Origin: a virus
Lineage: Duplodnaviria; Caudoviricetes
Reading direction: 5' to 3' (one strand)
IMG/VR virus record: IMGVR_UViG_3300014204_000114
Span: 96,001-160,000 of that record
Length of the DNA: 64,000 bases
Shown here: positions 13,979-30,209 of the stretch, in pieces
Position numbering within the stretch: position 1 is the first letter of the stretch
How the letters are laid out: the number at the start of each line of letters is the position of its first letter
Notes under the pieces: generated by a model
Database searches by the model: none
What the model saw: the letters and a program-made list of their open reading frames with translations, nothing else
What the model was told of the DNA's origin: nothing
Program-made: the position numbers and the translations under genes

Positions 13979-15079
13979 ATGTCTAAGAAAAAAGAAAAAG
14001 CACAAGAAGCGCCTAAGGTATTAGACAATAGGTCTGATGCGGAGAGAGCGTTCGATATAATTACTCAGAAGCACGGCGCTGGATCCATATTCAGAATGGG
14101 CGTATGCGAATCCCTGAATATAGAAGTTGTTTCTACTGGAGATCCATTGCTTGATTGTTTATTAGGCATATGGGGTTTGCCATACGGAAGAATAGTAGAA
14201 TTTTATGGGAAAGAACAGTCCGGGAAAACAACATTGTTATTACAAACAATAGCTAACGCCCAGAAACAAAAGAAATTGTGTGCAGTAGTCGACGCTGAGC
14301 ATGCGCTAGATATAGGTTATGCCAAGTCTTTAGGCGTAGACGTAAATAATCTTTTATTATCCCAGCCTGATAATGGCGAACAGGCTCTCACTATAGTAGA
14401 AGATTTGATCAGAGCTGGGGCTAAAGTAGTAGCTGTTGATTCTGTAGCAGCTCTAACTCCAAAAGCAGAAATCGAAGGTGAAATAGGGGACAGTCATGTT
14501 GGGCTTCAGGCGAGAATGATGTCTCAGGCTATGAGGAAGCTTACTGCTTTAGTAGATAATAGTAAAACGCTATTAATTTTTACCAATCAATTAAGATCTA
14601 CCATCATGAGTTATAGTGGACCGACTACTACCGGAGGAAACGCCCTCAAATATTATGCTTCTATAAGATTAGATATGAGAGCTTTAGGAGACGCTAGTTC
14701 TATAAAGGTAGAAGAGAAAAGAATAGGCGGAAAGTTTGCAGTAAAAGTAGTTAAGAATAAATTGTCCACTCCATTTAAAGAGGGCGAATTAACTATCATA
14801 TACGGTAAAGGCTTTTCTAAAGGTTACGATCTTATAGAATTAGGATTAATATCCAACGTTGTGGGGAAAAGCGGGAGCTGGTTTTCGTATAAAGGAGAGA
14901 GACTGGGACAAGGACAATATAACGCCTCATTATTTATAGAAAGCAACCCTGAATTATACGAAAAAATATACGCAGAAGCTAAACAAACTTTTAAATCCGA
15001 AATAATACCTAACGTGGAATTGAAAGAGGAAGAGGAAGAAATTGGAGATAGCACTAAAGAGCCTGAATCAGTCGATTAA
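13979..15079 (+). CDS. recA: recombinase RecA
   Basis: GRIVEFYGKEQSGKTT, DAEHALD, SQPDNGEQAL, VDSVAAL, ARMMSQAMRKL, GGNALKYYAS. Confidence 0.97.
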   Translation: MSKKKEKAQEAPKVLDNRSDAERAFDIITQKHGAGSIFRMGVCESLNIEVVSTGDPLLDCLLGIWGLPYGRIVEFYGKEQSGKTTLLLQTIANAQKQKKLCAVVDAEHALDIGYAKSLGVDVNNLLLSQPDNGEQALTIVEDLIRAGAKVVAVDSVAALTPKAEIEGEIGDSHVGLQARMMSQAMRKLTALVDNSKTLLIFTNQLRSTIMSYSGPTTTGGNALKYYASIRLDMRALGDASSIKVEEKRIGGKFAVKVVKNKLSTPFKEGELTIIYGKGFSKGYDLIELGLISNVVGKSGSWFSYKGERLGQGQYNASLFIESNPELYEKIYAEAKQTFKSEIIPNVELKEEEEEIGDSTKEPESVD

Positions 15080-15662
15080 ATCCTGTGAAGAATGTAAGGA
15101 CATAAGAAAATATACATTCAACTGTGTACTCTCTAAAGGAGATCCTCAAGCTCCTACAATGATTATAGGAGAAGCCCCGGGCAGAGAAGAGACTGAACAG
15201 GGGATTCCTTTTGTAGGTATGGCAGGGAAGATATTAAATGAGGCTCTGGATTTATGCGCCGAGGCCAATATACATTATAATCTCTACATTACGAATGCTG
15301 TGAAGTGTCGTCCGACAATAGAAGGAAAGAAGAACAGGCCTCCTACATGTGACGAGATAGTAAACTGTAATGTGTTTCTTATGAGAGAGATAAACATCTT
15401 AAGGCCCAGACATATAATCCTTTTAGGAGCGACGGCATATAAAGCCATTACGGATAATCCTGAGAGCTATACTCCTATAACTAAGTTGGTTAATGAGGGA
15501 TGCAGAGTGCCTCAAGAAAATATTTCAGAAAGAATCAGATGTTCATCCAAAGTATATGTAACGTATCATCCCGCCGCGACTATATATAATACAGGGACAA
15601 AAAAAGCTTTTCTAAATAGCATAGTTAGAATTTTGAGGAAGTGTGATGGAACTGTTGTTTGA
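15042..15662 (+). CDS. udg: family-4 uracil-DNA glycosylase (Fe-S)
   Basis: CEEC, IIGEAPG.EE, PFVG.AG, TNAVKCRP, NRPP, YHPAA. Confidence 0.9.
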   Translation: MEIALKSLNQSIKSCEECKDIRKYTFNCVLSKGDPQAPTMIIGEAPGREETEQGIPFVGMAGKILNEALDLCAEANIHYNLYITNAVKCRPTIEGKKNRPPTCDEIVNCNVFLMREINILRPRHIILLGATAYKAITDNPESYTPITKLVNEGCRVPQENISERIRCSSKVYVTYHPAATIYNTGTKKAFLNSIVRILRKCDGTVV

Positions 15663-16507
15663 TAGTAGTAACGATAGAGCTAAACTTGATTTTGAAAATA
15701 TGAAAAATGAAATGGCTCAATATATAAACTCTATCGATTTAGAACAAGGGAAGTGTCATGGATGGAATATCTTTGGGAGCGATGTATCTACACGATTTAT
15801 CGTGTATACTTATATTTTCGAGCGTGATTACATCGACAATACAGATTACAATGATCTATACGATATAGAAGACGATTTCATGGAAACTTGGTTCGAGATT
15901 TGCGAAGCTGAATCTTTAGCCGAGTACGGATGGGAAAGGAATAGAATGTTTTATGCGATCTTTGCGCTGCCCGAAAACTGGCAAGACATTATTAAGAAAA
16001 AATACTTCTAACGATAACTAGCTTACGAGGATGATATGACTATACCTTTAAGAGATTTATACGAAGTTAGTTTCATAGATCGTGATTATAAAGAATTATA
16101 TCTTCTTGACGTGTGGGCTCTTGACGCATACGAAGCTGCCATGAAAGCTTTGTACTGGAATGATGACGATAATAGTCTGAATATAGATGGGCACAAGAAA
16201 AAACTCGATGAGATTCATGTTGTTTTAAAAACTAAAGGTTGCGAAGAATGGACATTTTTTAAAGTTGTCCGCCATAAAAGAAAGAATCTGAATTATACTC
16301 CGATGAATAACTACTATACGATAAGAGAGATCGAACGATGAAAAACTGCCCAAAAAGAATAAGAAAGCAGAAGGAAAGAGAAGAGGGGTATTACAAATTG
16401 CCTATGGGTCCATGTATGTGGTTCTTATATCGATTCTCATATCCAGGGACATGCGTCAAAGCGGACGGATCATTGCAGTGTCCTACAAACGGTCATGTAT
16501 GTAAGGA

Positions 16508-17425
16508 TTGCCCTTGTTTATAAATTTACATCTGCATAGTCAGTACTCCGTATTCGATGGCACTATCGAAATAGATAAGCTCGCGGAGTATCTTAAAGAT
16601 AAAGCCCCGGGGTGTGCCATTACAGACCATGGGGTAATGCATGGATGCGTTAAGTTTTATAAGATATTTAAGAAAGCAGGACTGAAACCTATCCTGGGTT
16701 CAGAAATGTACATTACTTCCGTGGATAAAGGAACGCCGTATGATAAGATCCCTAATAAACAATCAGCTAAAGAAGAAAGAGGTATAGCAAAAGAGAGATA
16801 TCATATAATTCTATTAGCAAAGAACAACGAAGGCTATTCAAACTTATGTAGGATAGTTTCGGAGGGACATCTCCGCGGGTATTATTACAAACCAAGAATA
16901 GATCTGGAAGTCCTTAAGAAATATAAAGAAGGGATAGTAGTAACCTCAGCATGTATATTCGGAGAAGTCTCTAACTTACTTATTAAATCAGTAACCGAAC
17001 AAGAGGGAGAGTATTATTTAAAAGCTAAGGAAGTAACCAAGAAGTTCCTGGATATATTCGGGGACGATTATTACTTAGAAGTACAGGATAACGGAGCTAA
17101 GGAGCAATATATAGCCAATCCATTGATCTCTCAATTGGGTGAAGAATTAAGCATACCTATTGTGGCTACTTCGGATTCTCATTATCTTAAAAAAGAAGAT
17201 ATTAAGACGTTCGCATTAGGAATGAAGATGCAAACTTATGATTCCGCGAAGAAGAAATCCTCATACGAAGTAGATATGAATATGAAATTATGGGTCAAGA
17301 CAGAAGAAGATTTTATATCTGAACTGAGTATAAAAAAAGAGTACTGCGATAATACAGAGCTGGTTTTTAATAAATGTAATGTGTCTCTACCGCTAGGGAC
17401 GTTGAAGTTTCCGGAGGTTGCATGA
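16508..17425 (+). CDS. dnaE: DnaE piece 1: stand-alone PHP domain of DNA polymerase III alpha
   Basis: HLHSQYSVFDG, AITDHG, KPILGSE, HIILLAKN..GY.NL, YYKPRID, SACIFGE, ATSDSHY. It ends at the PHP-palm linker. Confidence 0.9.
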   Translation: MPLFINLHLHSQYSVFDGTIEIDKLAEYLKDKAPGCAITDHGVMHGCVKFYKIFKKAGLKPILGSEMYITSVDKGTPYDKIPNKQSAKEERGIAKERYHIILLAKNNEGYSNLCRIVSEGHLRGYYYKPRIDLEVLKKYKEGIVVTSACIFGEVSNLLIKSVTEQEGEYYLKAKEVTKKFLDIFGDDYYLEVQDNGAKEQYIANPLISQLGEELSIPIVATSDSHYLKKEDIKTFALGMKMQTYDSAKKKSSYEVDMNMKLWVKTEEDFISELSIKKEYCDNTELVFNKCNVSLPLGTLKFPEVA

Positions 17426-17910
17426 ATAAAACAATATGGACTCAGCCTGGGAATAAAACTCATATAGGCAAAATCCTTATAAAAGAGCATGAAGAAAATA
17501 ATCGTAAAGCTTATACTATGATAGTTAGAGGAAAATTACTTAAGAAGTGCTGGAGATTTCCATTTACTTATATTCATACAGGTAACTTAGTAGAACCAAT
17601 ACGTTTATACTTTCAAGTTATAGCTAAGGCTCCTAACTCTACTATGATACTAACTCAAAGTATATGTATGCCGGGAGCAGAGGATCTTAGAGAAGAGCAT
17701 AGCTTTAATGATATTATAGATGCTATTAATAAAGGTCTTATACATAAGGTATTTTTAAAAGCTACACTAAATGATCTAGCTACTAGTGCCCTTGAGGTTT
17801 CAGACCCTAATCTGCAGCAGAATAAGAACTATTATCTTCTAGAGGAACTAAAGAAGACAAGCGCTAGTCAATCCGTACTTACTTCTATCGAGGAGAGTGG
17901 GAGAATATGA
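17422..17910 (+). CDS. hypothetical protein lying between dnaE pieces
   Basis: 162 aa ORF with ATGA overlaps at both ends. Confidence 0.6.
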   Translation: MNKTIWTQPGNKTHIGKILIKEHEENNRKAYTMIVRGKLLKKCWRFPFTYIHTGNLVEPIRLYFQVIAKAPNSTMILTQSICMPGAEDLREEHSFNDIIDAINKGLIHKVFLKATLNDLATSALEVSDPNLQQNKNYYLLEELKKTSASQSVLTSIEESGRI

Positions 17911-18095
17911 GTTTTAGAGTAACAGACGAATGTATTAATTGCGGTATGTGCGAGGCTGATTGCCCCGTAGAGGCTATAACTTCTGACGGAGGGAAGTGTA
18001 GTATAGACCCAACCAAATGCGTTGAGTGTAAATATTTCTACGAAGAACCTCAGTGTGTGTCTAATTGTCCTGTAGGAGCCCACGAAAAGGTATGA
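17907..18095 (+). CDS. 2[4Fe-4S] ferredoxin (YfhL-like)
   Basis: CINCGMC...CP and CVEC(8 aa)C...CP. Confidence 0.9.
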
Positions 18096-18871
18096 GCGTA
18101 GAGACATTCAAAAAGAAAGTTGAAGAAGGATTTGCCAAAAAGATCTTAACCAAAGGATTCTCCCGGGAGATTAAAGATAAGTACCGTAAACAGCTTGATT
18201 ATGAGATAGAGATCATAACTAGGATGGGGTTTGCGGATTACTTTTTAATACTTCAAGACATGATCGGCTGGGCTAAAGGTGAGAATATACTTATAGGTCC
18301 TGGAAGAGGATGTTTACATCCAAGCGTATTTATCAGGACTCTCAAAGGGTTAATAAAAATCAAGAATATAAGAGTAGGAGACGAAGTATTATCTGATGAT
18401 AACAAGTATCATAAAGTATTAAAAGTATTCAGTTATGAAGTCGAAGAAGACTTAGTACAGATCAATACTTATAAGAAGATGACCGACCAGTTATTTACTA
18501 AAGATCACAAGATATTATGTATCAAAGACAAGAAAGCCAGAACTTGGATTAAAGCTAAAGATATATCCGCGGGGGACTTCCTGATAAGACCGCCAAGTAC
18601 GCTTCTAAAAGTTCGCTCTACAAGTATACTAGAGGGATATAGAGGTTTAGTCCATGATCTACAAGTAGAAAAGACTGCTAATTTCTGTACCGAAGGATTT
18701 ATAGTACATAACTCTGCTAGCGGAAGTTTAATTACATACGTATTAGGGATAACGACGATTGATCCTTTGAAATACAATTTGATTTTTGAACGTTTTCTTA
18801 ATCCAGGAAGACATTGGAGATATAAGATGGACTTCCCGGAGTTAACTTATCAGCAGTTCAAGGAGATATGA
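18092..18871 (+). CDS. dnaE: DnaE piece 2: N-terminal palm segment with a mini-intein
   Basis: [20 protein letters not shown]|intein|[26 protein letters not shown], then a stop before PDID. The likely start is ATG 18092. Confidence 0.9.
18311..18712 (+). mobile_element. 134 aa mini-intein without endonuclease
   Basis: CLHPSV...TKDHKI...VHDLQV...IVHN|S within the GRG-SA motif. Confidence 0.9.
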
Positions 18872-19102
18872 TGGAGACTGTTGTATACATAGGCCGCGAC
18901 GGAGAATTCGATAAGAATATAAAAAGAATAGCCGATGCTTTAGAAGAACAGAATAGAATAAATATAATGAATTTATTCTTGCGTATGCTAGAACGTACCG
19001 GATGTAATACGTATGACGTTCTTGAAGGTAGAGATAAGACTATAACTGGTCTTCTTAAAAATTTGAGTAAAATATCTGAAAAACTAAAAGAAGAATTAGA
19101 AC

Positions 19103-19131
19103 TTGACATGAGACAAGAATAAGAATATTAT
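19103..19131 (+). promoter_or_regulatory. sigma70 promoter for the tRNA cluster
   Basis: TTGACA-17-TATTAT about 40 nt upstream of the first tRNA. Confidence 0.75.
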
Positions 19132-19169
19132 AAGACATAAGGAGAAATCCTTAATTAAATATTTTTAAT

Positions 19170-19258
19170 GCCGAGATATCCAAGCTGGCTAAAGGAATCA
19201 GACTGTAGATCTGACAGGCTTTGTCCTTTCGGGGATTCAAATTCTCCTCTCGGCACCA
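19170..19258 (+). tRNA. tRNA-Tyr(GTA)
   Basis: Acceptor gccgaga/tctcggc, anticodon arm tcaga-ctGTAga-tctga, long variable arm, TTCAAAT loop, encoded ACCA. Confidence 0.9.
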
Positions 19259-19269
19259 GAAATTATTGA

Positions 19270-19345
19270 GCCTACGTATCTCAACTGATAGAGAGCCGCA
19301 CCTGTACTGCGGATGTTAGGGGTTTGAGACCTCTCGTAGGCTCCA
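19270..19345 (+). tRNA. tRNA-Thr(TGT), non-canonical
   Basis: Acceptor gcctacg/cgtaggc + TCCA, anticodon arm ccgca-ccTGTac-tgcgg. It has C33, no D-loop GG and T-loop TTTGAGA. Confidence 0.7.
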
Positions 19346-19349
19346 GTAT

Positions 19350-19422
19350 TCCCGGGTCGCTCAATTGGTAGGGCACGCGGTTACTCATCGCGAGGTTGTA
19401 GGTTCAAATCCTGCCCCGGGAG
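19350..19422 (+). tRNA. tRNA with anomalous anticodon loop (ACT), identity undetermined
   Basis: Acceptor tcccggg/cccggga + G73, canonical D and T arms, anticodon arm cgcgg-ttACTca-tcgcg, short variable loop, no encoded CCA. Confidence 0.7.
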
Positions 19423-19454
19423 CACTGCCAATTTTATCTGTAAAGGAAAAGAAG

Positions 19455-19766
19455 ATGCACACTACGATAGTAAAAATGAAAGATGGAAGAGAATTTAGAG
19501 GAGCCTTATGGACCTTTAGGCCTCTTGAAGGATGGTTCAATGTCACAGAAGAGGGTTCTCCCGAAAAAATATACTTCAAAGATTGCGAAAGCGTTATTAC
19601 TTTAGGGCAAAGGATTCATCCCGGAGTTACAGAAAATCAGGACGAAATAGAACGAGCAAAAGAAAACTTGCCTCAATTGGTACGCGACGAGCAATACGAT
19701 AAAGGGATTACAGATCCTAAGAAATTAGAAGAGAGGGCCAAAGAAATAATCAAGGAGCTGTACTAA
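19455..19766 (+). CDS. hypothetical protein
   Basis: Likely start is ATG 19455 (SD aagga). The longer ORF call overlaps the tRNA. Confidence 0.6.
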   Translation: MHTTIVKMKDGREFRGALWTFRPLEGWFNVTEEGSPEKIYFKDCESVITLGQRIHPGVTENQDEIERAKENLPQLVRDEQYDKGITDPKKLEERAKEIIKELY

Positions 19767-20064
19767 AATGCAAAACATATATTTAATAGGCAAGAGTTTT
19801 CAAGGAGTTAAGTCTATAGACGAATTTGACTATAAGATAATCAATAAGTCCGGGAGACATGCTATTAAAGGTAAGGCTAAGATAACGAAATATACCGGAG
19901 AATACGAAGAGCCCATAGAAGAAGGAATGGAATCCAACATATCTATATGGACGAAGAATAATAAGGAAGTCACAGTCACGACTTTTTACGGCGCAGAAAT
20001 AACAAAAGTTAAGGGGAATGTATTATGGTTCGACATAAGAGCTATGATACCAATACAAGAAAGA

Positions 20065-20093
20065 TTGACTTGTTAAAGTAAAGAAGTTATACT
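20065..20093 (+). promoter_or_regulatory. sigma70 promoter; predicted TSS about 20100 coincides with an ATG
   Basis: TTGACT-17-TATACT. Confidence 0.75.
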
Positions 20094-20099
20094 ACAGAT

Positions 20100-20141
20100 A
20101 TGAAGATAGAATTCAGCTAGATTCAACGTGCCCCGCCTTGA
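20100..20141 (+). CDS. putative leaderless leader peptide MKIEFS-(TAG)-IQRAPP-(TGA)
   Basis: atg aag ata gaa ttc agc TAG att caa cgt gcc ccg cct TGA. The RAPP arrest motif is reached only by amber readthrough. Confidence 0.6.
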
Positions 20142-20198
20142 TTCTCCTTGGCATGGAATTGGTTTATAGTAATGATTTGAACAATAAAATAAGGAGAA
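20142..20198 (+). promoter_or_regulatory. anti-SD/SD pair (putative translational attenuator)
   Basis: ttctcctt (20142-20149) is the exact reverse complement of aaggagaa (20191-20198), the SD for ATG 20204. Confidence 0.6.
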
Positions 20199-20203
20199 AA
20201 CAT

Positions 20204-20590
20204 ATGCATCCATATACAGAAAAGAAATTAGAACTTAAAGAAATAGCCAAGAAAATAGTAGTCCTAAAATTCCAACGTAAACCTAACAATAATACTTCAG
20301 GCAAAACACAAAGCGAAATTATTGACACTCTCTTCGACTCTAAACTCGAATACAGGATGAAGCATATTATTTACTGTTTGGCCAGAGGTCGTACGATGGA
20401 ACAGATAGAGAATAAAGTTAGCAAATCTAATAAGTTAGATAAGTATAAGTTATCACATATTGATGGGGCCTTCAAAGTTCTAAAGAAAGAAGCAGCCGAA
20501 TACGAAACTAAGTTGTTAGCAGAACGAAAAGATAAGAAAGAGAAAAGGAATGAAACTGTACGTAGTAACGAGGCGAGACTTACTGCCTAG
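20204..20590 (+). CDS. hypothetical basic helical phage protein
   Basis: SD aaggag + ATG 20204, motif EYRMKHIIYCLARGRTMEQIE, ends in TAG and overlaps the next gene. Confidence 0.7.
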   Translation: MHPYTEKKLELKEIAKKIVVLKFQRKPNNNTSGKTQSEIIDTLFDSKLEYRMKHIIYCLARGRTMEQIENKVSKSNKLDKYKLSHIDGAFKVLKKEAAEYETKLLAERKDKKEKRNETVRSNEARLTA

Positions 20591-20834
20591 TCAACAGGTG
20601 GTTCAAGTCGCTCACGTAGTAGCTAAATATATGCTAGAGAATCCAGGAGAGTGGAATAACGAGACTCTCGTGATTTATGGTGTAAGTAATGAGGTTGAAT
20701 TAGAATCTATATTAAATTCTCTTAAGAAGAGATATGTAAATCATTCCGAATCCAGAGAGCCTGACATGGGCTTGTCTCTAACGGGGATAGCAAGTACGAG
20801 CAGAAATGTTTTTAATAAGTTAAAACTGCTCTAG
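20550..20834 (+). CDS. peptidyl-tRNA hydrolase 2 (Pth2)-like protein
   Basis: KLYVVTRRDL.PSQQVVQVAH...W.NETLV...V.NE.EL...REPD....LTGIA, the Pth2-fold signature. Confidence 0.75.
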   Translation: MKLYVVTRRDLLPSQQVVQVAHVVAKYMLENPGEWNNETLVIYGVSNEVELESILNSLKKRYVNHSESREPDMGLSLTGIASTSRNVFNKLKLL

Positions 20835-20903
20835 TCGCTCAAATAGATAGGGCAAACGTCTCTAAAACGTAGTATGTTGGTTAGAGTCCAACCTATGGCA
20901 CCA
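20828..20903 (+). tRNA. amber suppressor-type tRNA (anticodon CTA)
   Basis: Acceptor gctctag/ctatggc (one mismatch) + ACCA, D stem gctc/gggc, anticodon arm aacgt-ctCTAaa-acgta, T arm gttgg-ttagagt-ccaac. Confidence 0.75.
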
Positions 20904-20924
20904 AATTTTATAAGGAGAAATAAA

Positions 20925-21119
20925 TTGGAAGAACAAAAGAAAGAAACAACTGAAGAATCAAAAGGGTTTAAATCTCTTATCGGGTTACTACTGACCGTAG
21001 CTGTATTTATATCTCTGATATACTTGCCTACAGCAGTAGTAAAGATTGTAGATTTTCAGAAACATAATTCGCCGACTGAAGTTACGATGACTATCGGAGT
21101 AACAGAAACGACAAAGTAA
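20925..21119 (+). CDS. small membrane protein
   Basis: SD aaggag + TTG, one TM helix LIGLLLTVAVFISLIYL. Confidence 0.6.
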   Translation: MEEQKKETTEESKGFKSLIGLLLTVAVFISLIYLPTAVVKIVDFQKHNSPTEVTMTIGVTETTK

Positions 21120-21130
21120 AAGGAGTTAAT

Positions 21131-21751
21131 ATGCCCAGAGGAAAAGTAAAAGAAAAAGTATTAAAGCTGTCAGATTTTACAGAATTTGGTATGCCCGATC
21201 CTATTTATAGAGCTAAGTTTATCGAGGGGGGCATAGAGATAGACTGGGGTATGCTCGGCGATTTACATGAACAGTACCGGGTATTCTTCTATACTAATAA
21301 TAAGGATACGAATCTACTTTTATTCTCCTTAAAAGGGAATAAAAAGGGTCAAGTGCAGGGATTTGAGATAGAAGCAGCTTCAGGTAAGGCTCCATATTAT
21401 ATCCATTGCGATTCATTTTTTAGAGTTGCAAAGTTCCCAATAGAAAAATATAAAAACAAATACTACAGAGTTTCAAATATTAAGCTTGACGGCGTTAGCT
21501 TATTTAAGATCGATTTGTCTATCGAAGTGACCGAAGCAGGATGGGAAGCATCCATAGTAAAAGGTCCTATTCGTAAATCACGTAAAGGAATAAAGCTTGG
21601 ACCCAGAAAGAAACCCGAGATTGAAGCTGTTCAGGAAAAGCCTCAAGAAAAGCCTGCTTATAGGAAATTAGATCTTGGAGATCAAAGACCTGCGGTGCCG
21701 CAATTCTCTAAAGCAATGGGCGAAAAAGTATTAAAATCATTCACAGAGTGA
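21131..21751 (+). CDS. hypothetical protein
   Basis: 206 aa, SD aggag. Confidence 0.65.
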   Translation: MPRGKVKEKVLKLSDFTEFGMPDPIYRAKFIEGGIEIDWGMLGDLHEQYRVFFYTNNKDTNLLLFSLKGNKKGQVQGFEIEAASGKAPYYIHCDSFFRVAKFPIEKYKNKYYRVSNIKLDGVSLFKIDLSIEVTEAGWEASIVKGPIRKSRKGIKLGPRKKPEIEAVQEKPQEKPAYRKLDLGDQRPAVPQFSKAMGEKVLKSFTE

Positions 21752-22485
21752 GGGATAATATGCCAGTAGAAAAAGTAAAATTAGAAGACATAAGAGAAAA
21801 GTATATCTCAGGCATGAATATGCGAGAAATAGGGAGTTACTACGGCGTGACATATCAGGCCGTTGCGGACAGATTAAAAAGGGCAGGAGTCCCACGAAGA
21901 GGAAGAGGAGCTCCTGTGTCCAAAGAAAGGATTAAAGCTGAGAGTCTGCTGAATGATGACCTTTTAAGGTACTTAAAGCATGACCTTAAGCTTACAAATA
22001 AACAAATCGCCGAAAGAATAAAAGTACCCGCTCAAACAGTTGGAAGTATAGCAGTAAAAAGAGGCATCCTTTATGAGCCTTCTAAAGAAGATAAGTACCA
22101 CATAGCCAGACCTAATGGGGTTAAACAAATATTTAATACTCCCGCTAAACAGGAAAAGCTTAAAGCGGACATTAAGAAGTACTATTACGAATTAGGTTTG
22201 TCTGTAAACGATACTGCAGAGAAAGTAGGCGTAAGCTGGCGGACAGTACTTCGCTGGATGAATTACTGGAACATGGAAAGAAGAAGCCGGAATATGATCT
22301 TCCCTTATCTAGATAAGGCTCAGAAGCAAGAGCTTAAAGCCAATATTAAAAGGATGTATCTGAAAGAAAGAATGACTACTTTTGAAGTGGCTGAAAAATT
22401 AAATACTACTGCTAGTACTATCGGCAGATGGATGGATATATTCGGAATTAAAAAGAGAGGTAACAGAAAGAGAGCTATCAAGTGA
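21748..22485 (+). CDS. multi-HTH DNA-binding protein
   Basis: Four repeats of the type Y...GxS...IA...GVS..TV.RW....I.RR. Confidence 0.7.
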   Translation: MRDNMPVEKVKLEDIREKYISGMNMREIGSYYGVTYQAVADRLKRAGVPRRGRGAPVSKERIKAESLLNDDLLRYLKHDLKLTNKQIAERIKVPAQTVGSIAVKRGILYEPSKEDKYHIARPNGVKQIFNTPAKQEKLKADIKKYYYELGLSVNDTAEKVGVSWRTVLRWMNYWNMERRSRNMIFPYLDKAQKQELKANIKRMYLKERMTTFEVAEKLNTTASTIGRWMDIFGIKKRGNRKRAIK

Positions 22486-23828
22486 GTACTAAAATTAACT
22501 GGCGACAAGTTAAGGATATCGAAGAGCTTAAGAAGCTAGCTACTGATGCCGAAGGGTATGATGTAGACTATGCTATTATGCTTGTCCATGGAGCGTATTC
22601 CAGAAAAGGAGTTCAGTACGAGCCGGAAGAAAATCTATTTTGGGTCTACAACCATATAGACGATTCAGAACAACTTCTGACTGAAGAGCAACTCTTCGAT
22701 ACGGACTATACAAACGTAGGAGACGCTATAAAGAAAGGTCATTTCTTCGTAGACTCCGACCAGATAAACTGGGAGATAGGATGAAAGTTAAAAAGCTTAT
22801 TGAATTAATAAAAGACTATCCAGATCATGTAATTGTTATAGGAGCTTGCGACTGGAATTCCAAAGTCTCTAATTTCTCAACAGGCTATATAGTTAAAGGA
22901 GACGATGGCATTTCCGAATTCTGCGATGCTTGGGATTACCAAGAAAATAAGCTAATGCAAGCTTCTAAAATAAAAAAAGCTTTAGTGCTTTGGCCGGAGG
23001 ATTAATGAAACCCAATCTAGAACATCACGGAGATATGACTTTAAATCTTGATTATTGGGATTGTGAATGTGAGTTCGGCTATATCCATGCTATAGATGTG
23101 GATTATTGCCCTATATGCGGAGCTCATAGAGAAGATCAACCCAATTCAAGAGCTGAAGAAGTTGAACATTTAATAAAGTGTGGTTAAAATGGCTGATAAT
23201 TATTTACAATTCTCAGAAGCTTTCGATATCGAACACCCTGAAATTCTTAAAGATATTATAGAAAAATACGAAAAAGAATTAGAAGAAGATGATGACGGAT
23301 ATGATAATGTCATACAATTCGAATACGAGTTCGACGAGAAGAGAAAAACCTTTTGGGCTCATGCTGATGAATGTGGCGAGCCTAGTCATTTAGCAGAAGT
23401 ATTACATAGGTATTTAAAAGAGACGAACTCAGATACGGTATTTTCTTTTGAATATGCATACACCTGTTCTAAGATGCGATGTGGAGAGTTTGGTGGTGCG
23501 GCCATAGCCATAAGCAGAAAGAAAATACTATGGTCTGAATCTTCTCTCCAATTAGTCGAGAAATTAAAAAAGCAATTAAAATGTAAGAGGACCAAGAATG
23601 CCTAGATATTTGGTAGAAGTACCTGAGATATGGATAAAGCATTACTTTGTAGACGATGCCAAGGACGAAGACGATGCTATAGATAAGGTCGACATAGGAG
23701 ATTGTCACGAATTGAATGGCGATGACGACTTTTATATGCAGCGTGTCGAAGATAAAGAAGAGTGGATAGCCACCAAAATTACGTTAAAACCAATCGGAAA
23801 ACCAAAAAGAGATGGTGAAACTCTCTAA

Positions 23829-26663
23829 ATGCACAGCTACTTCTCAGAAAAAGCTAGTAAGATTATAGGATGGATAGACTTTGATAGATTAATTGAGCTG
23901 GAGAATCAAGATGAGTTCTATATAGAACTGGATAACTATGATTTCCACGATAAGTTCTCCGGAGAAAGATTTCTAGATTATTTAATCTATCTTAAAGTCA
24001 AGGATATTAAAGTCTCCAATCCTAATAATTCTTGTGTAGCATGGGTTACAGGCGTTACTGACGATAAGCCTGTAGCTTTGCCTGAAAGGGAGATTGGGTC
24101 CTTGCCTGACGTAGATATAGACGTATCGAAGGATCACAGGCAGGATGTTATAGATTATCTTGTATCCAAATATGGCAAGGATAATGTAGCGCCTATAGCC
24201 ACCTTCAATTCATTTGCCCTCAAATCAGCTATAAGGGCCGTAGCGAGGACTTTGGAATACCCCTATGAGATAGGCGATAAGCTATCAAAGATGTCTCCTG
24301 ACCCCGTGCAGGGCAAAAATCTGACATTTTTAGAAGCTCTTGAGGAAGTTCCTGAGCTTAAACGGATATACGAAGAAGGTGGAGAGGGGTTTAATGGCGA
24401 CGCCCAAAAAATATTAAAGGAAGTAAAGCTAATAGAAGGTATTATATCTTCTGTTGGTACGCATGCTTCCGGAGTAGTTATTTCTCCGTTTACATTAACC
24501 GATCTATTACCTCTACAGCTTAATAATAAAGATATGACTGTCGTCCAGTACGATATGGAGGATGTAGAGGCTTTAGGATTAGTAAAGTTTGATATATTGG
24601 GGATTAAAACTTTAACTACGTTAAAGATGTGCGCGGATTTTATAAAAGAAAGATTCAATATCACTATAGATTTTGAGAATATACCTTTGGATGATCCTAA
24701 TGTTTACAAGATGATATGCGAGGGATTCCTCTTAGGAATATTCCAGCTTGAAACTTCTTCCGGCATGAGACAAATAGTAAAACAGATACAGCCTAAATGC
24801 ATAGAAGATCTATCAGATATATTAGCTATATATAGACCTGGTCCTCTGGGTAGTTCCGAGCTTAAGAATTATTTAGAATGTAAGACTACAGGCAAGGAAC
24901 CAAAGTATGCCCACCCTGCATTAGAACCTATCCTTAAACCGACTTCCGGATTGATGCTTTATCAAGAGCAAATTATGAGAATAGCCAGGGATATATGTGG
25001 GTACACAATGGTCGAGGGCGATTCTCTGAGAAAATGTGTGTCTGGAGATACTTTATTCTGGACTCAAGATGGCTATAAACACATAAAAGATATGGTGCGT
25101 AATAGAAAAAGAAATACTGCTCGTACTTTAACGAATTATGAAATCGTGGATAATAAAATTGATAATGCTTTTAAGTCGGGGATAAAGGACACTATAAAAA
25201 TAATTACAGAAAGCAGATCTGAGATAATATGTACTCCGGATCATGAGATATTTACTAATGAAGGATATATTCAAGCCAAAGACTTAACTAGAGCTCATTA
25301 TTTATTACACGATATTACTGAAAAGTATGGCACGTACGACATAGACGAAGATTTATTGTTTTTAATAGCGGCTCTCGTTACAGAAGGACATACTGGTAAA
25401 AACGCTTGGTATTTTTGTAATAAAGATAAAATTTACATAGATAAATTCATAGATGCATTTTACAATATTTTCAAATACATTCCTAAGACACATATAGGCG
25501 GAAATGATGTTATTTATGTTCAAATAAAAGCTGACGCCAGTAAATATTTAACAGATAATTTCCCATCAATAGTCGGCACTAGCGCTTTTAAGTCTTTACC
25601 GTTTGATTTTCTTAATTTAGTACAAGAGAAACATCTCAAATTGCTAAGCTGGATGATAGATTTTGATGGATGGGCAGATGATAGACACATAGCTTACTGT
25701 ACTAAATCAATTAAACTAGCAGCACAAGTTAAATTACTATTTGAAAATATAGGTTGCGGGGCTTATATACTTAATAAAAAAGTTAAAGGATACGGTATAT
25801 TTTATAATGTGCATATTGGAGATAGACAAGATATCTTAAGAGCTAAAAATAAATTAATATATTCAGAGAAAATATCCTCTAAAAACTTTTCTACTACCAG
25901 AGACGCTAAAAGAAATTATGTATCTAAGTATACTATACCTTCTAATATATACAAACCTATTATTGATTCTATAATAAAACAGTCTGGATATAGCAGAAAT
26001 GAATTAGTAGGAAAAAATATATCTGGTTCTTATTTTTCCGGGCCATTAGGTATAGATAGACTGTCTGATATTTTGTCGGTTTGCGGGCGCTCGAAAGAAT
26101 TAGAATTTTATTTAAATAGAGAGGTTTATTGGGATAAAATTCGATCGATAACTCCAAATGGGGAGATCGATGTGTATGACTTTAGTATGACAGAAAGATC
26201 TAGTCCTCGTGCATTTGCTAATAACATACTTATACATAATTGCGTAGGAAAGAAAAAAGCAGAGGAGTTATTAAAACACGAGGAAAAGTTCGTATCTGGC
26301 GGAATTAGATTGGGTTTTCCAGAGAAAATGCTCAGAGATTTATTTAACAATATCAAGAGCTTTGGGGCGTATGGATTCAATAAATGTCTAACTGGGGACA
26401 CTAAAGTAAAAACTCCAGACGGTATAAAGGCTATCGAAAGCTTAAAAGTCCCATGTACTTTGTTATCGATGGACGCTAATAACAATATTATCGAAAATGA
26501 GTGTGTCGAAAAAATAGATTGCGGAGAACAAGACGTATATGAAATTGAATTTAGCGATAGCTGTATCATAAAATGTACCCTAGATCATAAGTTCATGTGT
26601 GGTGATAATAAAATGCATAGCGTGAGGGATATTATAAAAGATGACTTGACAGTTCTAGCTTAG
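23829..26663 (+). CDS. dnaE: DnaE piece 3: catalytic palm/thumb/fingers with an internal intein and a C-terminal split IntN
   Basis: SLPDVDID, GTHASGVVI, GLVKFDILG, GIFQLE, YRPGPL, LYQEQIM, LRK|intein|CVGKKK, AYGFNK|IntN. Confidence 0.95.
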   Translation: MHSYFSEKASKIIGWIDFDRLIELENQDEFYIELDNYDFHDKFSGERFLDYLIYLKVKDIKVSNPNNSCVAWVTGVTDDKPVALPEREIGSLPDVDIDVSKDHRQDVIDYLVSKYGKDNVAPIATFNSFALKSAIRAVARTLEYPYEIGDKLSKMSPDPVQGKNLTFLEALEEVPELKRIYEEGGEGFNGDAQKILKEVKLIEGIISSVGTHASGVVISPFTLTDLLPLQLNNKDMTVVQYDMEDVEALGLVKFDILGIKTLTTLKMCADFIKERFNITIDFENIPLDDPNVYKMICEGFLLGIFQLETSSGMRQIVKQIQPKCIEDLSDILAIYRPGPLGSSELKNYLECKTTGKEPKYAHPALEPILKPTSGLMLYQEQIMRIARDICGYTMVEGDSLRKCVSGDTLFWTQDGYKHIKDMVRNRKRNTARTLTNYEIVDNKIDNAFKSGIKDTIKIITESRSEIICTPDHEIFTNEGYIQAKDLTRAHYLLHDITEKYGTYDIDEDLLFLIAALVTEGHTGKNAWYFCNKDKIYIDKFIDAFYNIFKYIPKTHIGGNDVIYVQIKADASKYLTDNFPSIVGTSAFKSLPFDFLNLVQEKHLKLLSWMIDFDGWADDRHIAYCTKSIKLAAQVKLLFENIGCGAYILNKKVKGYGIFYNVHIGDRQDILRAKNKLIYSEKISSKNFSTTRDAKRNYVSKYTIPSNIYKPIIDSIIKQSGYSRNELVGKNISGSYFSGPLGIDRLSDILSVCGRSKELEFYLNREVYWDKIRSITPNGEIDVYDFSMTERSSPRAFANNILIHNCVGKKKAEELLKHEEKFVSGGIRLGFPEKMLRDLFNNIKSFGAYGFNKCLTGDTKVKTPDGIKAIESLKVPCTLLSMDANNNIIENECVEKIDCGEQDVYEIEFSDSCIIKCTLDHKFMCGDNKMHSVRDIIKDDLTVLA
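25035..26240 (+). mobile_element. 402 aa intein with a LAGLIDADG endonuclease
   Basis: CVSGDT...TPDHEI...LIAALVTEG...WMIDFDG...VYDFSM...LIHN|C. Confidence 0.9.
26385..26660 (+). mobile_element. split intein N-half (92 aa)
   Basis: CLTGDTKV...GEQDVYEIEF...CTLDHKFM, then a stop. Confidence 0.9.
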
Positions 26664-26674
26664 GAGTCTATAAT
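26646..26674 (+). promoter_or_regulatory. perfect sigma70 promoter overlapping the IntN 3' end, driving the endonuclease and the IntC-DnaE gene
   Basis: TTGACA-17-TATAAT followed by SD aggagg. Confidence 0.8.
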
Positions 26675-26702
26675 CATATAAGAGGCATAGGAGGCCTTTT
26701 AT

Positions 26703-27596
26703 ATGGAACAAACGAACACAATGAGACGTAGGCGTAATTTTTCTCCACCTAACAAAACAATTACAGACGACGATAAAAGATTTATGGTAGAACAGTACGT
26801 AACACATAAAAAATCAGCTAACGAAATATTAAAGATGTTTAACGGAAAGTTTAAAACTACTAAAACTGTTTATGACGTTCTAAAACAATTCGATATTAAA
26901 GGAAGAGAATTACAAGACTATATTAATATAGACCACCTATTCTTTTCAGAAATAAACACTTCAGCCAAAGCCTACATATTAGGCTTATTTATAACAGATG
27001 GTTGGGTAATATCTGATAAAGGGGCGTTCGGGATCCAATTAACAATGGAAGACGAGAATATAATCAAAATGATTAGAAAAGAACTTAAATCAGATACGAG
27101 TTTAGTAACATGTTATAAAAAACCATTCGAAGGTGCTAACGGAAATATATATCAACCTAAAGATATGATAAGATTCTTCGCCCATTCTAAGCAAATTGTT
27201 AACGATCTGTCTAGGTACGGCGTAATCAACAATAAGAGCGACAAGACGTTACTGCCTCTGATTGGCCCAAATTTTATGCCACATATGTTAAGAGGTATTT
27301 TAGACGGAGACGGCAGCGTGTATATACATGCTCAATCGAATAATCTATGTATTAGATTTATAGGAACGAGAGTCCTAGTAGCCCAAATCTCAATGTTTTT
27401 AGCCTTAGCATTAGGCGTAAAATATAACTATCCTAATATACGAACTAAACAAAAAGAGACATATATGGATATTTGTTATGTAGATTGGGAGAGTAAAGAA
27501 GAGGTCGAAAAAATAATAAGATATATATATAAGGACTCGGACGAAGACCATAGGATAAGAAGAAAATATGAGAAAGCTAAAGATTATATCATATAA
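26703..27596 (+). CDS. free-standing LAGLIDADG homing endonuclease between the split intein halves
   Basis: AYILGLFITDG and MLRGILDGDG motifs with an N-terminal HTH-like segment. Confidence 0.9.
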   Translation: MEQTNTMRRRRNFSPPNKTITDDDKRFMVEQYVTHKKSANEILKMFNGKFKTTKTVYDVLKQFDIKGRELQDYINIDHLFFSEINTSAKAYILGLFITDGWVISDKGAFGIQLTMEDENIIKMIRKELKSDTSLVTCYKKPFEGANGNIYQPKDMIRFFAHSKQIVNDLSRYGVINNKSDKTLLPLIGPNFMPHMLRGILDGDGSVYIHAQSNNLCIRFIGTRVLVAQISMFLALALGVKYNYPNIRTKQKETYMDICYVDWESKEEVEKIIRYIYKDSDEDHRIRRKYEKAKDYII

Positions 27597-28932
27597 AAAG
27601 GTAGGTACAAAAAAGACTTACAATCTTCGTATGATTAAGAAGCCACATAACTATATATTGGCTAATGGATTAGTTTCTGCTAACTCGCATAGCATTTCAT
27701 ATAGTTATATAACATACTTCACGTCTTACATGAAGTGTTATTACCCTACTGATTTTATGGCATCGTTATTATCTAATGAAGATAATCCTGATATGTTTAA
27801 GCAGTATCTTAGAGAATGTTCTGATTTAGGGTTAAAGATAATGCCGCCGGATATAAATGAATCCGATAGAGGGTTTAGACCTGCAGGGGATGATTCGAAT
27901 CCGGTTATCTATTTTGGTTTAAATGGTATTACAGGTATAGGATCTAAAGTCGTAGATGAGATATTGTTAGCCAGAGAATCCGGTCCTTTTATGAATATTA
28001 AAGATTTTGTTTCAAGAGTTAATACCAGAGTAGTTAATAAAGGCAAGAGAGAACTACTAGCCAAAATAGGCTGCTTTGATAAGTTTAATGTTAATAGAAG
28101 GGCTGTTGCTGAACAGCTAGAGGACTTAGTTGATTATGCGGCAAGAACAAGAACTTATAATGCCGCGCTGGATAAGTATCATGCTTATGTAGACAAGAGA
28201 AGAGAAGAAGGGAAAGATATAACAAAGGTCCCGCCTGCTAAACCTGTGTTCGAAAAGACTTATTCTCATGTGGAAAATTATATAGAGAAAGAGCTATGTG
28301 ATTTTGAAAGAGATTTCTTGGGGGCATACGTAACCAATCACCCGTTGATTAAGATAAGACAATTCAAGGGAGACTCTCAATATGTCATTTCGGACTTAAA
28401 GGATGACTATTATGTGGACCAGCCGATTCATCTCTACTGTATGGTAGAAGACGCCCGAAAGATAAAGACTAAGAATGGAACCAACATGGCGTTCCTGAAA
28501 ATCATAGACGAGTTTGATAGTATAGAATGCGTAGTGTTCCCTAAAGTGTATGAAGTATCTAAAAGTGTATTGGTAGATCCATATCTATCCGGCGCGTATT
28601 TTATCGAGGGAATGCTTCGACCTAACTATCAAGACAGATCTGTAATGAATGTTATAGCTAATAAGATAATGCCTATAGAAAGCAGTGAAGGATTAAGGCA
28701 TAACTATAAATTAATTCTTAAGCCTAATAAGACATTCCATAAGCTTCTTAAGATGAAACCTCTTCTAAAACGCCACAGAGCTTATGAGAATAACCTTAAT
28801 ATGATATCTCTTAAGATAGGCGACATCGAATTTGAATTCCGTAACTCAAGACAGTTCGAAGAAACAGGAAAGATCAGAGCTCTATTAAGAGAGAACGGCA
28901 TTGATGGAAATCTAGTATTGGAAAAACGTTAG
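27568..28932 (+). CDS. dnaE: DnaE piece 4: IntC (39 aa) fused to the C-terminal fingers/HhH/OB domains
   Basis: MRKLKII...HNYILANGLVSAN|SHSISYS..YMKCYYP, PPDINES, GLNGITGIG, ERDFLGAYVTNHP, TKNGTNMAF. Confidence 0.93.
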   Translation: MRKLKIISYKKVGTKKTYNLRMIKKPHNYILANGLVSANSHSISYSYITYFTSYMKCYYPTDFMASLLSNEDNPDMFKQYLRECSDLGLKIMPPDINESDRGFRPAGDDSNPVIYFGLNGITGIGSKVVDEILLARESGPFMNIKDFVSRVNTRVVNKGKRELLAKIGCFDKFNVNRRAVAEQLEDLVDYAARTRTYNAALDKYHAYVDKRREEGKDITKVPPAKPVFEKTYSHVENYIEKELCDFERDFLGAYVTNHPLIKIRQFKGDSQYVISDLKDDYYVDQPIHLYCMVEDARKIKTKNGTNMAFLKIIDEFDSIECVVFPKVYEVSKSVLVDPYLSGAYFIEGMLRPNYQDRSVMNVIANKIMPIESSEGLRHNYKLILKPNKTFHKLLKMKPLLKRHRAYENNLNMISLKIGDIEFEFRNSRQFEETGKIRALLRENGIDGNLVLEKR

Positions 28933-29144
28933 AATAATCAACTAGATTTTATTTATTTTATTTTTCGGAGATAAGATGGAGATCCAGACAAAGGTCCTAT
29001 ACCTGATAGGATTCATTTTATTATTATCTTTACTAATAGGAATGGCAGTTCTTTGCGTTCTGGTTAAGATAATAATCTATTTGGTAAGCAATTTTGGAAT
29101 TTTTTTGTTGATTTTGTTTTTACTGTATTGTATAATACGGGATA

Positions 29145-29966
29145 ATGGAAAGGGAGATAGCAATGGAGATATACAAGACGAATAAGATTTCTCTGTCGGG
29201 CAATCGCAAAGTAGATCCGAACACGCTAGATATTTCTAAGGGATGTATAGGCGCTCAAAAGAGAGAGAATGGATGTTATAACGCCTGTTACGCCTGTAAG
29301 ATGTCCAAGTTAGCCAACAAAGATTTCTCCGTTCCCGTCCCGCAGATATTAGACGAAAGTCTATTACGTAAACAGCTTAAAACTCTAAAGCAAAACTGGG
29401 TTAGGATAGGAGTCTCCGGAGACCCATCTTCGGATTGGGATACTACAGTTAAAGTGTGTCAGATAGTCAGAGAGTCAGGGAGAACCCCGGTAGTCAAAAC
29501 TAAATGCTGGACAGAACCAGAACAGATACATCTTAAGCAAATGGCTGTTTCTAATACCATCTTCCAAGTCTCTATGTCAGCACTAGATGATGAGGACGAA
29601 AGCAAACGAAGATCCAAAGCCTTGGCTTCTTACAGAGACCTCCTGCCAGGCTATTCTGTTCCTATGGTAAACTCGCTTGCGTTTAAGCCCGGAGAATTAC
29701 ACACCAGACAAGCTACTGATTCTGAATTACTTTTAAAGTTCTGCGGGAGTATCTTAGAAGTTCCAATAAGACTGTTTAAGACTAACCCTATATGGAAAGA
29801 GCTTGACGAGTCAAAATATCATCATCACGAATCAGTCATAAGTGGTAAGGAAGATTCCCAGTATACAGCCGGACTGGTAATAAATCTTACCGGCGTCTAT
29901 CCATGTAATACTAAATGTAGTGAATGCGAGAACCAATGTATGGTCAATGTGTTGGAGAAAAAGTAA
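29145..29966 (+). CDS. radical-SAM-like protein (SPL/DUF5131-like)
   Basis: GC....GCYNACYAC, RIGVSGDP, C-terminal CxxxCxxCxxxC. Confidence 0.6.
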   Translation: MEREIAMEIYKTNKISLSGNRKVDPNTLDISKGCIGAQKRENGCYNACYACKMSKLANKDFSVPVPQILDESLLRKQLKTLKQNWVRIGVSGDPSSDWDTTVKVCQIVRESGRTPVVKTKCWTEPEQIHLKQMAVSNTIFQVSMSALDDEDESKRRSKALASYRDLLPGYSVPMVNSLAFKPGELHTRQATDSELLLKFCGSILEVPIRLFKTNPIWKELDESKYHHHESVISGKEDSQYTAGLVINLTGVYPCNTKCSECENQCMVNVLEKK

Positions 29967-30209
29967 CATGGTCCCTTACGGCTCTACTAAAAAAGACCCT
30001 TTGAAATTAGATAAAGTGGATCTTGAAACTTTATATAATAATTTTAAAGAGGGTTTGTTTGATACGCAGATTAAGGATTACGAATATATAATTGCTTCAA
30101 GACAATTAGTTGATACTACAGATGCTATCGGAAGATACGCTAATCACTTCGGTAATGACAACCAGATAATGGTTTGTACTGGATTGCAGTTTTCTAAGAA
30201 GGAGGACTA

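Follow-up and report, generated by a model that had tools for sequence, protein, structure and literature searches.

A DnaE polymerase gene in four pieces in an uncultured phage, and a possible mobile-cassette origin of the split before its catalytic strand

How can a DNA polymerase remain in working order when its gene lies in four pieces? This question is raised by dnaE, the gene for the C-family DNA polymerase III (Pol III) α subunit, in a window of 64,000 nt (the whole stretch of DNA that was analysed, whose positions serve as coordinates unless a related locus is named). The window comprises bases 96001-160000 of IMG/VR record IMGVR_UViG_3300014204_000114, a single record of 187,794 bp from an uncultured phage that is ~99% complete according to CheckV. 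Replicative polymerases are among the most constrained enzymes, and here one of them is spread over four genes and interrupted five times in four mechanistically different ways. The split DnaE is the sole recognisable replicative polymerase encoded by the phage, since Pfam models revealed no second Pol III α, PolA or PolB in the whole record. The same searches found no DnaQ-type exonuclease either, which leaves its PHP domain as the sole candidate for proofreading that the phage encodes. The reading that we favour, with a probability of roughly 0.68, is that this sole DnaE, interrupted five times, yields three chains that assemble non-covalently, and that the fission before the catalytic PDxDxD strand matches the footprint of a mobile cassette.

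The four pieces of the gene

The gene consists of four collinear open reading frames (ORFs) on the plus strand, termed P1 to P4, which are interrupted by three inteins and two intein-free splits; all parts of the gene and the inserts between them are given on this strand. The ORFs, their domains and their order had been proposed in an earlier sequence-only reading, and Pfam and PHROG matches as well as the sequence itself agree with it. The same applies to the ferredoxin, tRNAs and more than ten unrelated genes reported between the pieces (a ferredoxin-like ORF and ORF162 at junction 1/2, 13 ORFs of at least 60 residues and four tRNAs at junction 2/3), to the N- and C-terminal intein halves (IntN and IntC) at junction 3/4 and their absence, by Pfam, from junctions 1/2 and 2/3, and to a break just ahead of the catalytic aspartates, with FERFLNPGR in P2 and PDVDID in P3. 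The proposed architecture of three mature chains and the position of the break have thus stood, but the view of a simple fracture has not: junction 2/3 is an overlap that matches the ends of a cassette, and the gene contains two extra cis inteins. What had been missed is a cis mini-intein in P2, a LAGLIDADG intein in P3, a free-standing homing endonuclease gene (HEG) between IntN and IntC, and the overlap at junction 2/3.

P1 (16508-17425) encodes a stand-alone PHP domain of 305 residues ending in LKFPEVA (PF02811, E = 1.8e-46). Of 28 columns with at least 85% conservation among homologs, it keeps 25, including H8, H10, D17, H41, E66, H99, D223 and H225, and with them His/Asp/Glu metal-ligand positions. 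P2 begins at its true ATG at 18092 with an N-extein of 73 residues (18092-18310) that covers the palm-N helices up to GPGRG (PF07733 positions 3-70; Taq α 387-426). It continues with a mini-intein of 134 residues (18311-18712) and the canonical part of its C-extein (18713-18811; Taq α 425-459), which would complete the GRG-S-xx-GS loop after splicing. The piece closes with a tail of 19 residues and a stop codon (18812-18871) that stands in place of the catalytic strand, lacks its aspartates and resembles the tails found in two related lineages, L083 and G001, described below. A spacer of ~5 kb (18872-23828) separates P2 from P3, which starts directly behind the stop codon of the preceding ORF.

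P3 opens with an N-extension (residues 1-92; 23829-24104) that is collinear with the palm-N of contiguous homologs and appears to be a degenerate copy of it. The catalytic core follows (24105-25034; PF07733 positions 69-260, PF17657) with PDVDID (D94, D96, D98), the thumb, D255 and the first part of the fingers, then a LAGLIDADG intein of 402 residues (25035-26240), an extein segment of 48 residues ending in AYGFNK (26241-26384; placed by sequence and by tblastn matches in homologs) and an IntN of 92 residues (26385-26663) with CLTGDT, TLDH and a TAG stop, a homolog of the Npu and Ssp DnaE split inteins. P3 aligns to E. coli α 394-712 (E = 1.6e-64), and D94, D96, D98, K253 and D255 are invariant in an alignment of 51 sequences; the catalytic palm aspartates of E. 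coli α are D401, D403 and D555 (Timinskas 2014). Behind the HEG (26703-27596; Pfam LAGLIDADG_3, E = 1.4e-10; phrog_4645 endonuclease, E = 2.6e-41) the gene resumes with an IntC of 39 residues (27568-27684, ending ANGLVSAN/SHS, the slash marking the splice site here and below) and the P4 C-extein of 415 residues (27685-28932, TAG stop), which starts with SHSISYS in agreement with the conserved FNKSH and contains the end of the fingers, a helix-hairpin-helix (HhH) region (HHH_6, PF14579, E = 4.6e-25) and a C-terminus like an oligonucleotide-binding (OB) fold (phrog_405, positions 794-1059). The canonical DnaE domain order is preserved over the four ORFs, PHP, DNA_pol3_alpha, DNA_pol3_finger and HHH_6 all scoring above the Pfam cut-offs; the OB match in P4 is weak (18.5 bits) and lies below its cut-off. 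The GS loop and the catalytic strand are not found on a single polypeptide but on P2 and P3, respectively, 5 kb apart. Protein splicing would leave three chains, a PHP chain of 305, a palm-N chain of 125 and a core-to-C-terminus chain of 865 residues, from which the active enzyme most likely forms by non-covalent assembly.

The break before the catalytic aspartates

P2 and P3 share part of the palm. In PF07733, the P2 C-extein covers positions 66-99 and P3 covers 69-260; in phmmer alignments P2 217-250 corresponds to Taq α 425-459 and P3 from residue 68 to Taq α 430 onward, and BLAST against contiguous homologs places P3 residues ~19-89 collinear with palm-N with three deletions. When 25 homologs are compared, P2 keeps 23 of the 25 conserved palm-N columns that precede the catalytic strand (including G-RGS-G, Y, IT, DP and FERF...R) and P3 keeps six, its N-extension reading SNPNNS for GPGRGS and a shortened ALPEREIG for FERF...R. 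From the catalytic strand onward, 15 of 16 conserved columns are kept in P3, and P2 reads MDFPEL, has lost both aspartates and then stops. Judged from these alignments, P2 and P3 are complementary, with the GS loop in P2 only (after splicing of the mini-intein) and the catalytic aspartates in P3 only. This arrangement would constitute a natural case of a C-family active site distributed over two polypeptides, the nucleotide-binding loop being provided by one chain and the catalytic aspartates by another. Two other ideas about these termini were considered. A hidden IntC at the P3 N-terminus is at odds with the lack of any Hint or intein match upstream of residue 400. For mimicry of the PHP-palm linker by the P2 tail, shuffle tests disagreed: the three own-linker comparisons gave p values of 0.06, 0.68 and 0.76, none of them significant, and one or two of six cross comparisons stood out.

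The same design is present in other phages. A search of 1.84 billion proteins gave 21,140 hits, and among the best 150 representatives, which were examined, ~15 further C-fragments (clusters at ≤50% identity) carry an N-extension of 70-100 residues. These C-fragments start with Met, none has GRGS or FERF, and their extensions share the pattern Y[LI]xYL...[IK]K[VY]-SN[PK]xNS-x-[LV][AL][YW]-x-LG[IV]TDExP...G[SG]L[PC]DIDxD. The P3 N-extension module was found in 17 other C-fragments. The genomic context was examined for two lineages that possess both tail and extension, the L083 type and G001. At nine IMG/VR loci of the L083 type, an N-fragment of 432 residues (PHP plus canonical palm-N) that ends in GRNVKEHISFPEFSIQTFKNGV before its stop codon is followed by a free-standing LAGLIDADG gene and a C-fragment with extension. 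G001 has an N-fragment of 439 residues that keeps the canonical GRGS/FERF and ends in GRAKRPQIEFEEFSIDKYKETK before its stop codon, a 4.4-kb spacer with six unrelated genes, and a C-fragment of 834 residues with extension. In both lineages the extension carries the motif NxxNS...W/Y..G[IV]TD. The three tails are alike beyond shuffled controls (0/5000 for two pairs, one of them the tail of this phage vs that of L083; p = 0.011 for this phage vs G001).

Comparison of L083 with a second locus, L077, bears on the origin of these termini. The two are collinear with 80-85% DNA identity, except for 1,138 bp of L083 that stand in place of 10 bp in L077. This insert contains the last ~13 codons of the N-fragment with the stop codon, the LAGLIDADG gene and codons 1-92 of the C-fragment, and it ends exactly before MPDIDID. 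In the L083 lineage, the tail and the degenerate copy, or pseudo-palm-N, are thus parts of one insertion, because both lie inside the 1,138-bp insert that is absent from L077. Insertion-derived tails on both fragments are therefore evident from L083 vs L077, and the tail and N-extension of the phage studied here align to them; the free-standing endonuclease gene at the split is present in L083 and absent from junction 2/3. The P2 tail and the P3 N-extension would correspond to the two ends of an L083-type HEG cassette, and the endonuclease slot would now be filled by ~5 kb of tRNAs and small genes. As a more general but tentative proposal, to which we give somewhat less than even odds, a family of LAGLIDADG cassettes invades phage dnaE before the catalytic aspartates and brings along a repair kit, made up of the tail for the N-fragment and the degenerate palm-N for the C-fragment, with the slot later becoming a landing pad for cargo. 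If this were true, the repair kit would let the two halves fold and reassemble without splicing, a mobile element would neutralise its own damage independently of an intein, and the cargo would be tRNAs here and radical S-adenosylmethionine (SAM)-like genes in G001.

The spacers of the two phages differ in content. The one in G001 (L105, 3449-7823, minus strand) holds two ORFs with CxxxCxxC motifs of the radical-SAM type, recognised by eye, and four other genes. Junction 2/3 of the present phage contains tRNA-Tyr/Thr/Ser (19170-19423), a suppressor-type tRNA(CUA) (20828-20903) and a DNA-binding protein of 245 residues with four helix-turn-helix (HTH) motifs (21748-22485). The latter resembles PHROG 'HNH endonuclease' families in their DNA-binding parts but has no detected nuclease domain, and could be either a remnant or a regulatory protein. 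In G001 and likewise here, the split seems to provide a slot for cargo.

The closest parallel to the intein-free splits is the nrdA gene of Aeromonas phage Aeh1, which is split by mobE and in which insertion-derived tails are essential for assembly of the enzyme (Crona et al. 2011, PMC3045599). There, too, an essential enzyme is split by a free-standing endonuclease gene, new termini are made by the insert, and the parts assemble non-covalently without splicing, so that Aeh1 nrdA/mobE can serve as a working model for junction 2/3. In contrast to Aeh1, the split enzyme is a C-family polymerase, conservation of tail and extension spans several phage lineages that have diverged, both appear to move together with the endonuclease gene as one cassette, and the N-extension repeats the upstream module in degenerate form; moreover, in this phage the endonuclease gene is missing and the slot has widened to 5 kb. 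A split at the same subdomain boundary, between FERFLNPGR and PDVDID, has been described for group 2.2 T4-like jumbo phages, in which a minimal Pol III α is predicted to consist of an N-protein that binds nucleoside triphosphates and a C-protein that binds Mg2+ and template, encoded by separate genes (Iyer et al. 2021, PMC7824862). Those proteins are minimal, lack PHP and occur alongside a family-B polymerase (PMC7824862), whereas the enzyme described here comprises PHP, palm, thumb, fingers, HhH and OB-like parts, is the sole polymerase with no PolB, and has an overlapping pseudo-copy and a tail. In the literature, no paper was found on a dnaE-splitting endonuclease cassette with conserved tail and pseudo-palm-N. 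Our findings suggest that an HEG cassette may bring with it conserved stretches of protein that make up for the split it causes, and they would extend the single example of Aeh1 NrdA to a module that recurs and is apparently mobile. Split-protein engineering could potentially make use of the natural split points, the pair of tail and extension, and the three inteins.

A working enzyme or a decaying gene

Information on constraint comes from independent NCBI, Logan and ENA assemblies (5.5, 11.3 and 118 kb) that encode proteins with the same ends as here; records of equal size (5,482 bp; 118,124 bp) are probably the same contig, judging from size and source. Between strains, no differences were found in P1 (0/302, 0%) and IntN (0/92, 0%), one in the 402 residues of the large cis intein (0.25%), one in the 125 residues of the P2 exteins with tail (0.8%), where the substitution affects the last residue of the tail, and three in the 361 residues of the P3 core exteins (0.8%). 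The P2 mini-intein differs at 4 of 134 positions (3.0%), the P3 N-extension at 5 of 89 (5.6%) and a neighbouring orphan ORF, ORF76, at 8 of 76 (10.5%); five of nine strain substitutions in P3 fall within residues 44-74. Conservation of the exteins significantly exceeds that of ORF76 (P2, p = 0.002; P3 core, p = 6e-5), and the P3 N-extension changes faster than the P3 core (p = 0.009). The split polymerase thus appears to be under purifying selection. These strain data indicate strongly constrained exteins and argue against decay and against assembly error, since independent assemblies share the ends of the pieces and the exteins are nearly invariant.

Structural modelling adds to this picture. 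An AlphaFold model of P3 1-402, built with the family alignment of 51 sequences, reached a predicted local distance difference test (pLDDT) score of 88; a single-sequence model of P3 with pLDDT 34 was not used. The N-extension is modelled as helices, with pLDDT 78-90 for residues 11-30 and 51-80, and these superpose on palm-N in the Taq α ternary complex 3E0D_A, although the family alignment biases this placement. Overall, 362 residues align between the model and 3E0D_A 347-767 (Z 16.1, root-mean-square deviation 6.0 Å). The model suggests that the C-fragment is self-capped by a palm-N mimic that lacks the loop.

This bears the possibility that the joined product of P3 and P4 is the polymerase by itself, with a structurally sufficient pseudo-palm-N and with P1 and P2 acting apart from it in accessory roles, for instance as a free PHP exonuclease and a leftover module. 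The conservation of the N-extension across ~18 C-fragments and its modelled helices in the canonical palm-N position would suit such an arrangement. The extension, however, has neither the GPGRGS loop nor FERF...R; at least 80% of the 25 homologs conserve these motifs, and P2 contains them. Furthermore, the exteins of P2 are near-invariant between strains, the mini-intein in its loop retains intact splicing residues, and the old lineage G001 retains a canonical GRGS/FERF N-fragment, so that we regard this alternative as unlikely. Decay of dnaE with replication by the host Pol III is distinctly improbable: neither frameshifts nor internal stops are present, the catalytic, PHP-ligand and intein residues are all intact, the exteins show strong conservation from strain to strain, and distant lineages have kept the same split design. 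These observations outweigh what could be taken as signs of decay, namely the five interruptions, a P3 N-extension that changes about as fast as the orphan ORF, and the failure to detect a phage beta clamp or clamp-loader in the record with the one model tried.

Phage polymerase genes often contain introns, and the pieces are collinear on one strand, as would be expected if they were rejoined at the nucleic-acid level by a group I or II intron, trans-splicing, ribosomal bypass or a programmed excision of the spacer DNA. When 15000-30000 was scanned with Rfam at permissive E-value thresholds, tRNAs alone and neither introns nor ribozymes came up, there are no direct repeats around the spacers and no repeats or recombination sites bracketing the junctions, every piece has a start and a stop of its own, with overlaps that couple genes, and the spacer carries tRNA genes and 13 ORFs; rejoining of this kind is accordingly a very remote prospect. 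Even less credible is an assembly or binning artefact that joined fragments of different dnaE genes, a danger to which the sequence-only reading had itself drawn attention. The contig is metagenomic, and P2 and P3 overlap in homology, but P1, P2, P3, ORF76 and the HEG recur in the independent assemblies in identical or 98-99% identical form with the same ends, and the composition is uniform. The other danger that had been named, an intact dnaE elsewhere, did not materialise either, as the whole-record Pfam search returned this C-family polymerase as the only one. A working enzyme is favoured over decay because there is no other dnaE, PolA or PolB, the exteins are conserved between strains and the split design is shared with two other phage lineages, and a polymerase of three non-covalently assembled chains would be its best description.

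Several points weigh against this three-chain polymerase or its origin from a cassette. Splicing, assembly and activity, as well as a docking or placeholder role of tail and pseudo-palm-N, are what we infer from the sequence. In the model, the pseudo-palm-N occupies the canonical palm-N position, and the palm-N of P2 would have to join by displacement or by docking side by side. The estimate of constraint uses only protein sequences, from two or three near-identical strains, and the numbers are small. Descent of junction 2/3 from the cassette is deduced from the similarity of a tail of 16-19 residues and an extension of ~90 residues, the direct pairwise similarity between the P3 N-terminus and P2 is not significant and their homology is visible only against family members, and in the 5-kb spacer no LAGLIDADG remnant or other nuclease domain was found. 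Finally, the core tree is weakly resolved, with P3-like proteins scattered over it and at least five changes forced by well-supported branches, which fits repeated gain or loss of the P3-like design. A clade test of one vs several origins of P3-like proteins was discarded, the support of the tree being too weak to decide.

Inteins, further junctions and genomic setting

Both cis inteins show the expected Hint blocks A, B, F and G and a +1 nucleophile by Pfam and sequence, and splicing itself is predicted. The mini-intein sits inside the nucleotide-binding loop (GPGRG/C, block B TKDH, VHN/SASGSL) with Cys1, terminal HN and Ser+1, and scores 41.1 bits with Pfam Intein_splicing (cut-off 35.8 bits) and matches Hint models. 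A larger LAGLIDADG intein is present at the identical GPGRG/S site in L099 (8813-12832 of a 188.6-kb contig) and aligns over its first 82 residues, which is consistent with loss of the endonuclease domain from the mini-intein in the lineage of the present phage. The large intein, in the fingers (SLRK/C, block B TPDH, IHN/C; 74.3 bits), has two LAGLIDADG-type motifs. Both cis inteins must splice before any active site can form.

The split intein is inserted between GFNK/C (IntN) and VSAN/S (IntC), so that the gene would be interrupted at GFNK/SHS, and the penultimate residue of IntC is Ala, not His. IntN is homologous to solved DnaE split inteins (4LX3, 4QFQ, 2KEQ, 1ZD7; E = 7e-11 to 6e-8), and IntN-like matches also occur directly after the DnaE fingers segment in L033 and L040. 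The HEG shares the reading frame of IntN, from which it is separated by a linker of 13 codons with three stops (26661-26705), and its product is 28% identical to that of the L083 cassette HEG (E = 1e-9); it could once have been the intein's own domain or be a member of the L083-type free-standing family. A perfect 12/12 sigma-70 consensus (TTGACA-17-TATAAT) is located at 26646-26674, across the P3/IntN stop and directly upstream of the HEG, and an 11/12 match at 19103-19131 ahead of the cluster of tRNAs. In total, promoter-like sites are no more numerous in this region than expected by chance.

Fractured genes, in which a split intein is combined with a free-standing endonuclease gene, have been described before and include three metagenomic DnaE loci (Dassa et al. 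2009, PMC2677866). By its sequence, junction 3/4 qualifies as a fractured gene in this sense, because split intein halves flank a free-standing HEG; adjacent IntN and IntC ORFs on the same strand with the endonuclease gene between them, a phage-like setting and a host gene of DNA metabolism are common to both. The published cases contain GIY-YIG and Vsr-like endonucleases and LAGLIDADG is never mentioned (PMC2677866), whereas a LAGLIDADG endonuclease is found here, together with Ala in place of His in IntC and with two cis inteins and two intein-free splits in the same gene. The cyanobacterial split DnaE proteins (Ssp/Npu) have a homologous IntN (E ~1e-10) and are split in the same FNKSH motif region, but their halves are encoded far apart in the genome, unlike the adjacent halves with an endonuclease gene between them in this phage. 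The insertion site presumably lies ~4 residues downstream of the Ssp site (GFNK/SHS vs EY/CFNKSH). Trichodesmium DnaE contains two cis inteins and one split intein.

Junction 1/2, between PHP and palm, appears to be a clean cut that now houses two small genes. P1 ends in LKFPEVA and P2 starts with MSVETF, and in comparison with contiguous homologs no residue is lost or gained. The insert (17422-18095) consists of ORF162 (17422-17910) and an ORF of 62 residues that resembles 2x[4Fe-4S]-type ferredoxins (17907-18095); P1, both ORFs and P2 are chained by ATGA stop/start overlaps. ORF162 had no Pfam or PHROG match and no usable Atlas match. At L008, L010, L014 and L015, a PHP ORF is followed by two small ORFs and an ORF reaching from palm to C-terminus, and one small ORF of the L008 class has a motif that resembles Vsr/DUF559 nucleases by eye. 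PHP and palm are also split in L021, L061 and L099, and 47 of the best 150 representatives from the protein search are PHP-less and start at canonical palm-N.

Further splits were seen in the thumb. L083-type phages have a second DnaE split there (L083 10877-11578) that holds an ORF of 233 residues with DnaQ-like exonuclease motifs, seen by eye, and no endonuclease gene, so that a proofreader gene may be lodged within the polymerase gene. In more than 30 related viral loci (L027-L053, L073-L082, L091-L098), DnaE is split in the thumb at about P3 core residues 172-191 by inserts of 0.7-0.9 kb or by overlapping ORFs, with no intein match. Intein-free DnaE fission is common in this phage clade. 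The two top matches inspected among GenBank phages have a contiguous dnaE. Among the database matches to P1, many proteins of ~370-385 residues from public metagenome data that comprise PHP and the start of Pol III α (P0195-P0313) end in frameshift-like junk after GPGRGS and are probably due to homopolymer errors in bacterial dnaE rather than real N-fragments. A census of N-fragments by word search was not used, as its matches were mostly truncated or frameshifted bacterial genes.

Megablast against phages and a metagenome scan matched no close relatives. No signal for genome-wide reassignment of TAG or TGA was obtained. The spacer at junction 2/3 encodes the amber-suppressor-type tRNA(CUA) mentioned above, and P3 (26661-26663) and P4 (28930-28932) both end in TAG; readthrough of the P3 stop would add only QESIII before a TAA. 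Genes on the plus strand are densely packed up to ~36 kb of the window, and the surroundings of dnaE form a module for replication and nucleotide metabolism with the large subunit of ribonucleotide reductase (RNR), RecA/UvsX, uracil-DNA glycosylase (UDG) and an SbcD-like exonuclease. The RNR large subunit (789 residues, 11214-13583) has its own intein-like insert at about residues 270-450, which scores 30.5 bits with Pfam Intein_splicing and thus lies below the cut-off; the insert was also seen in the genome scan, and the replication module as a whole is rich in inteins.

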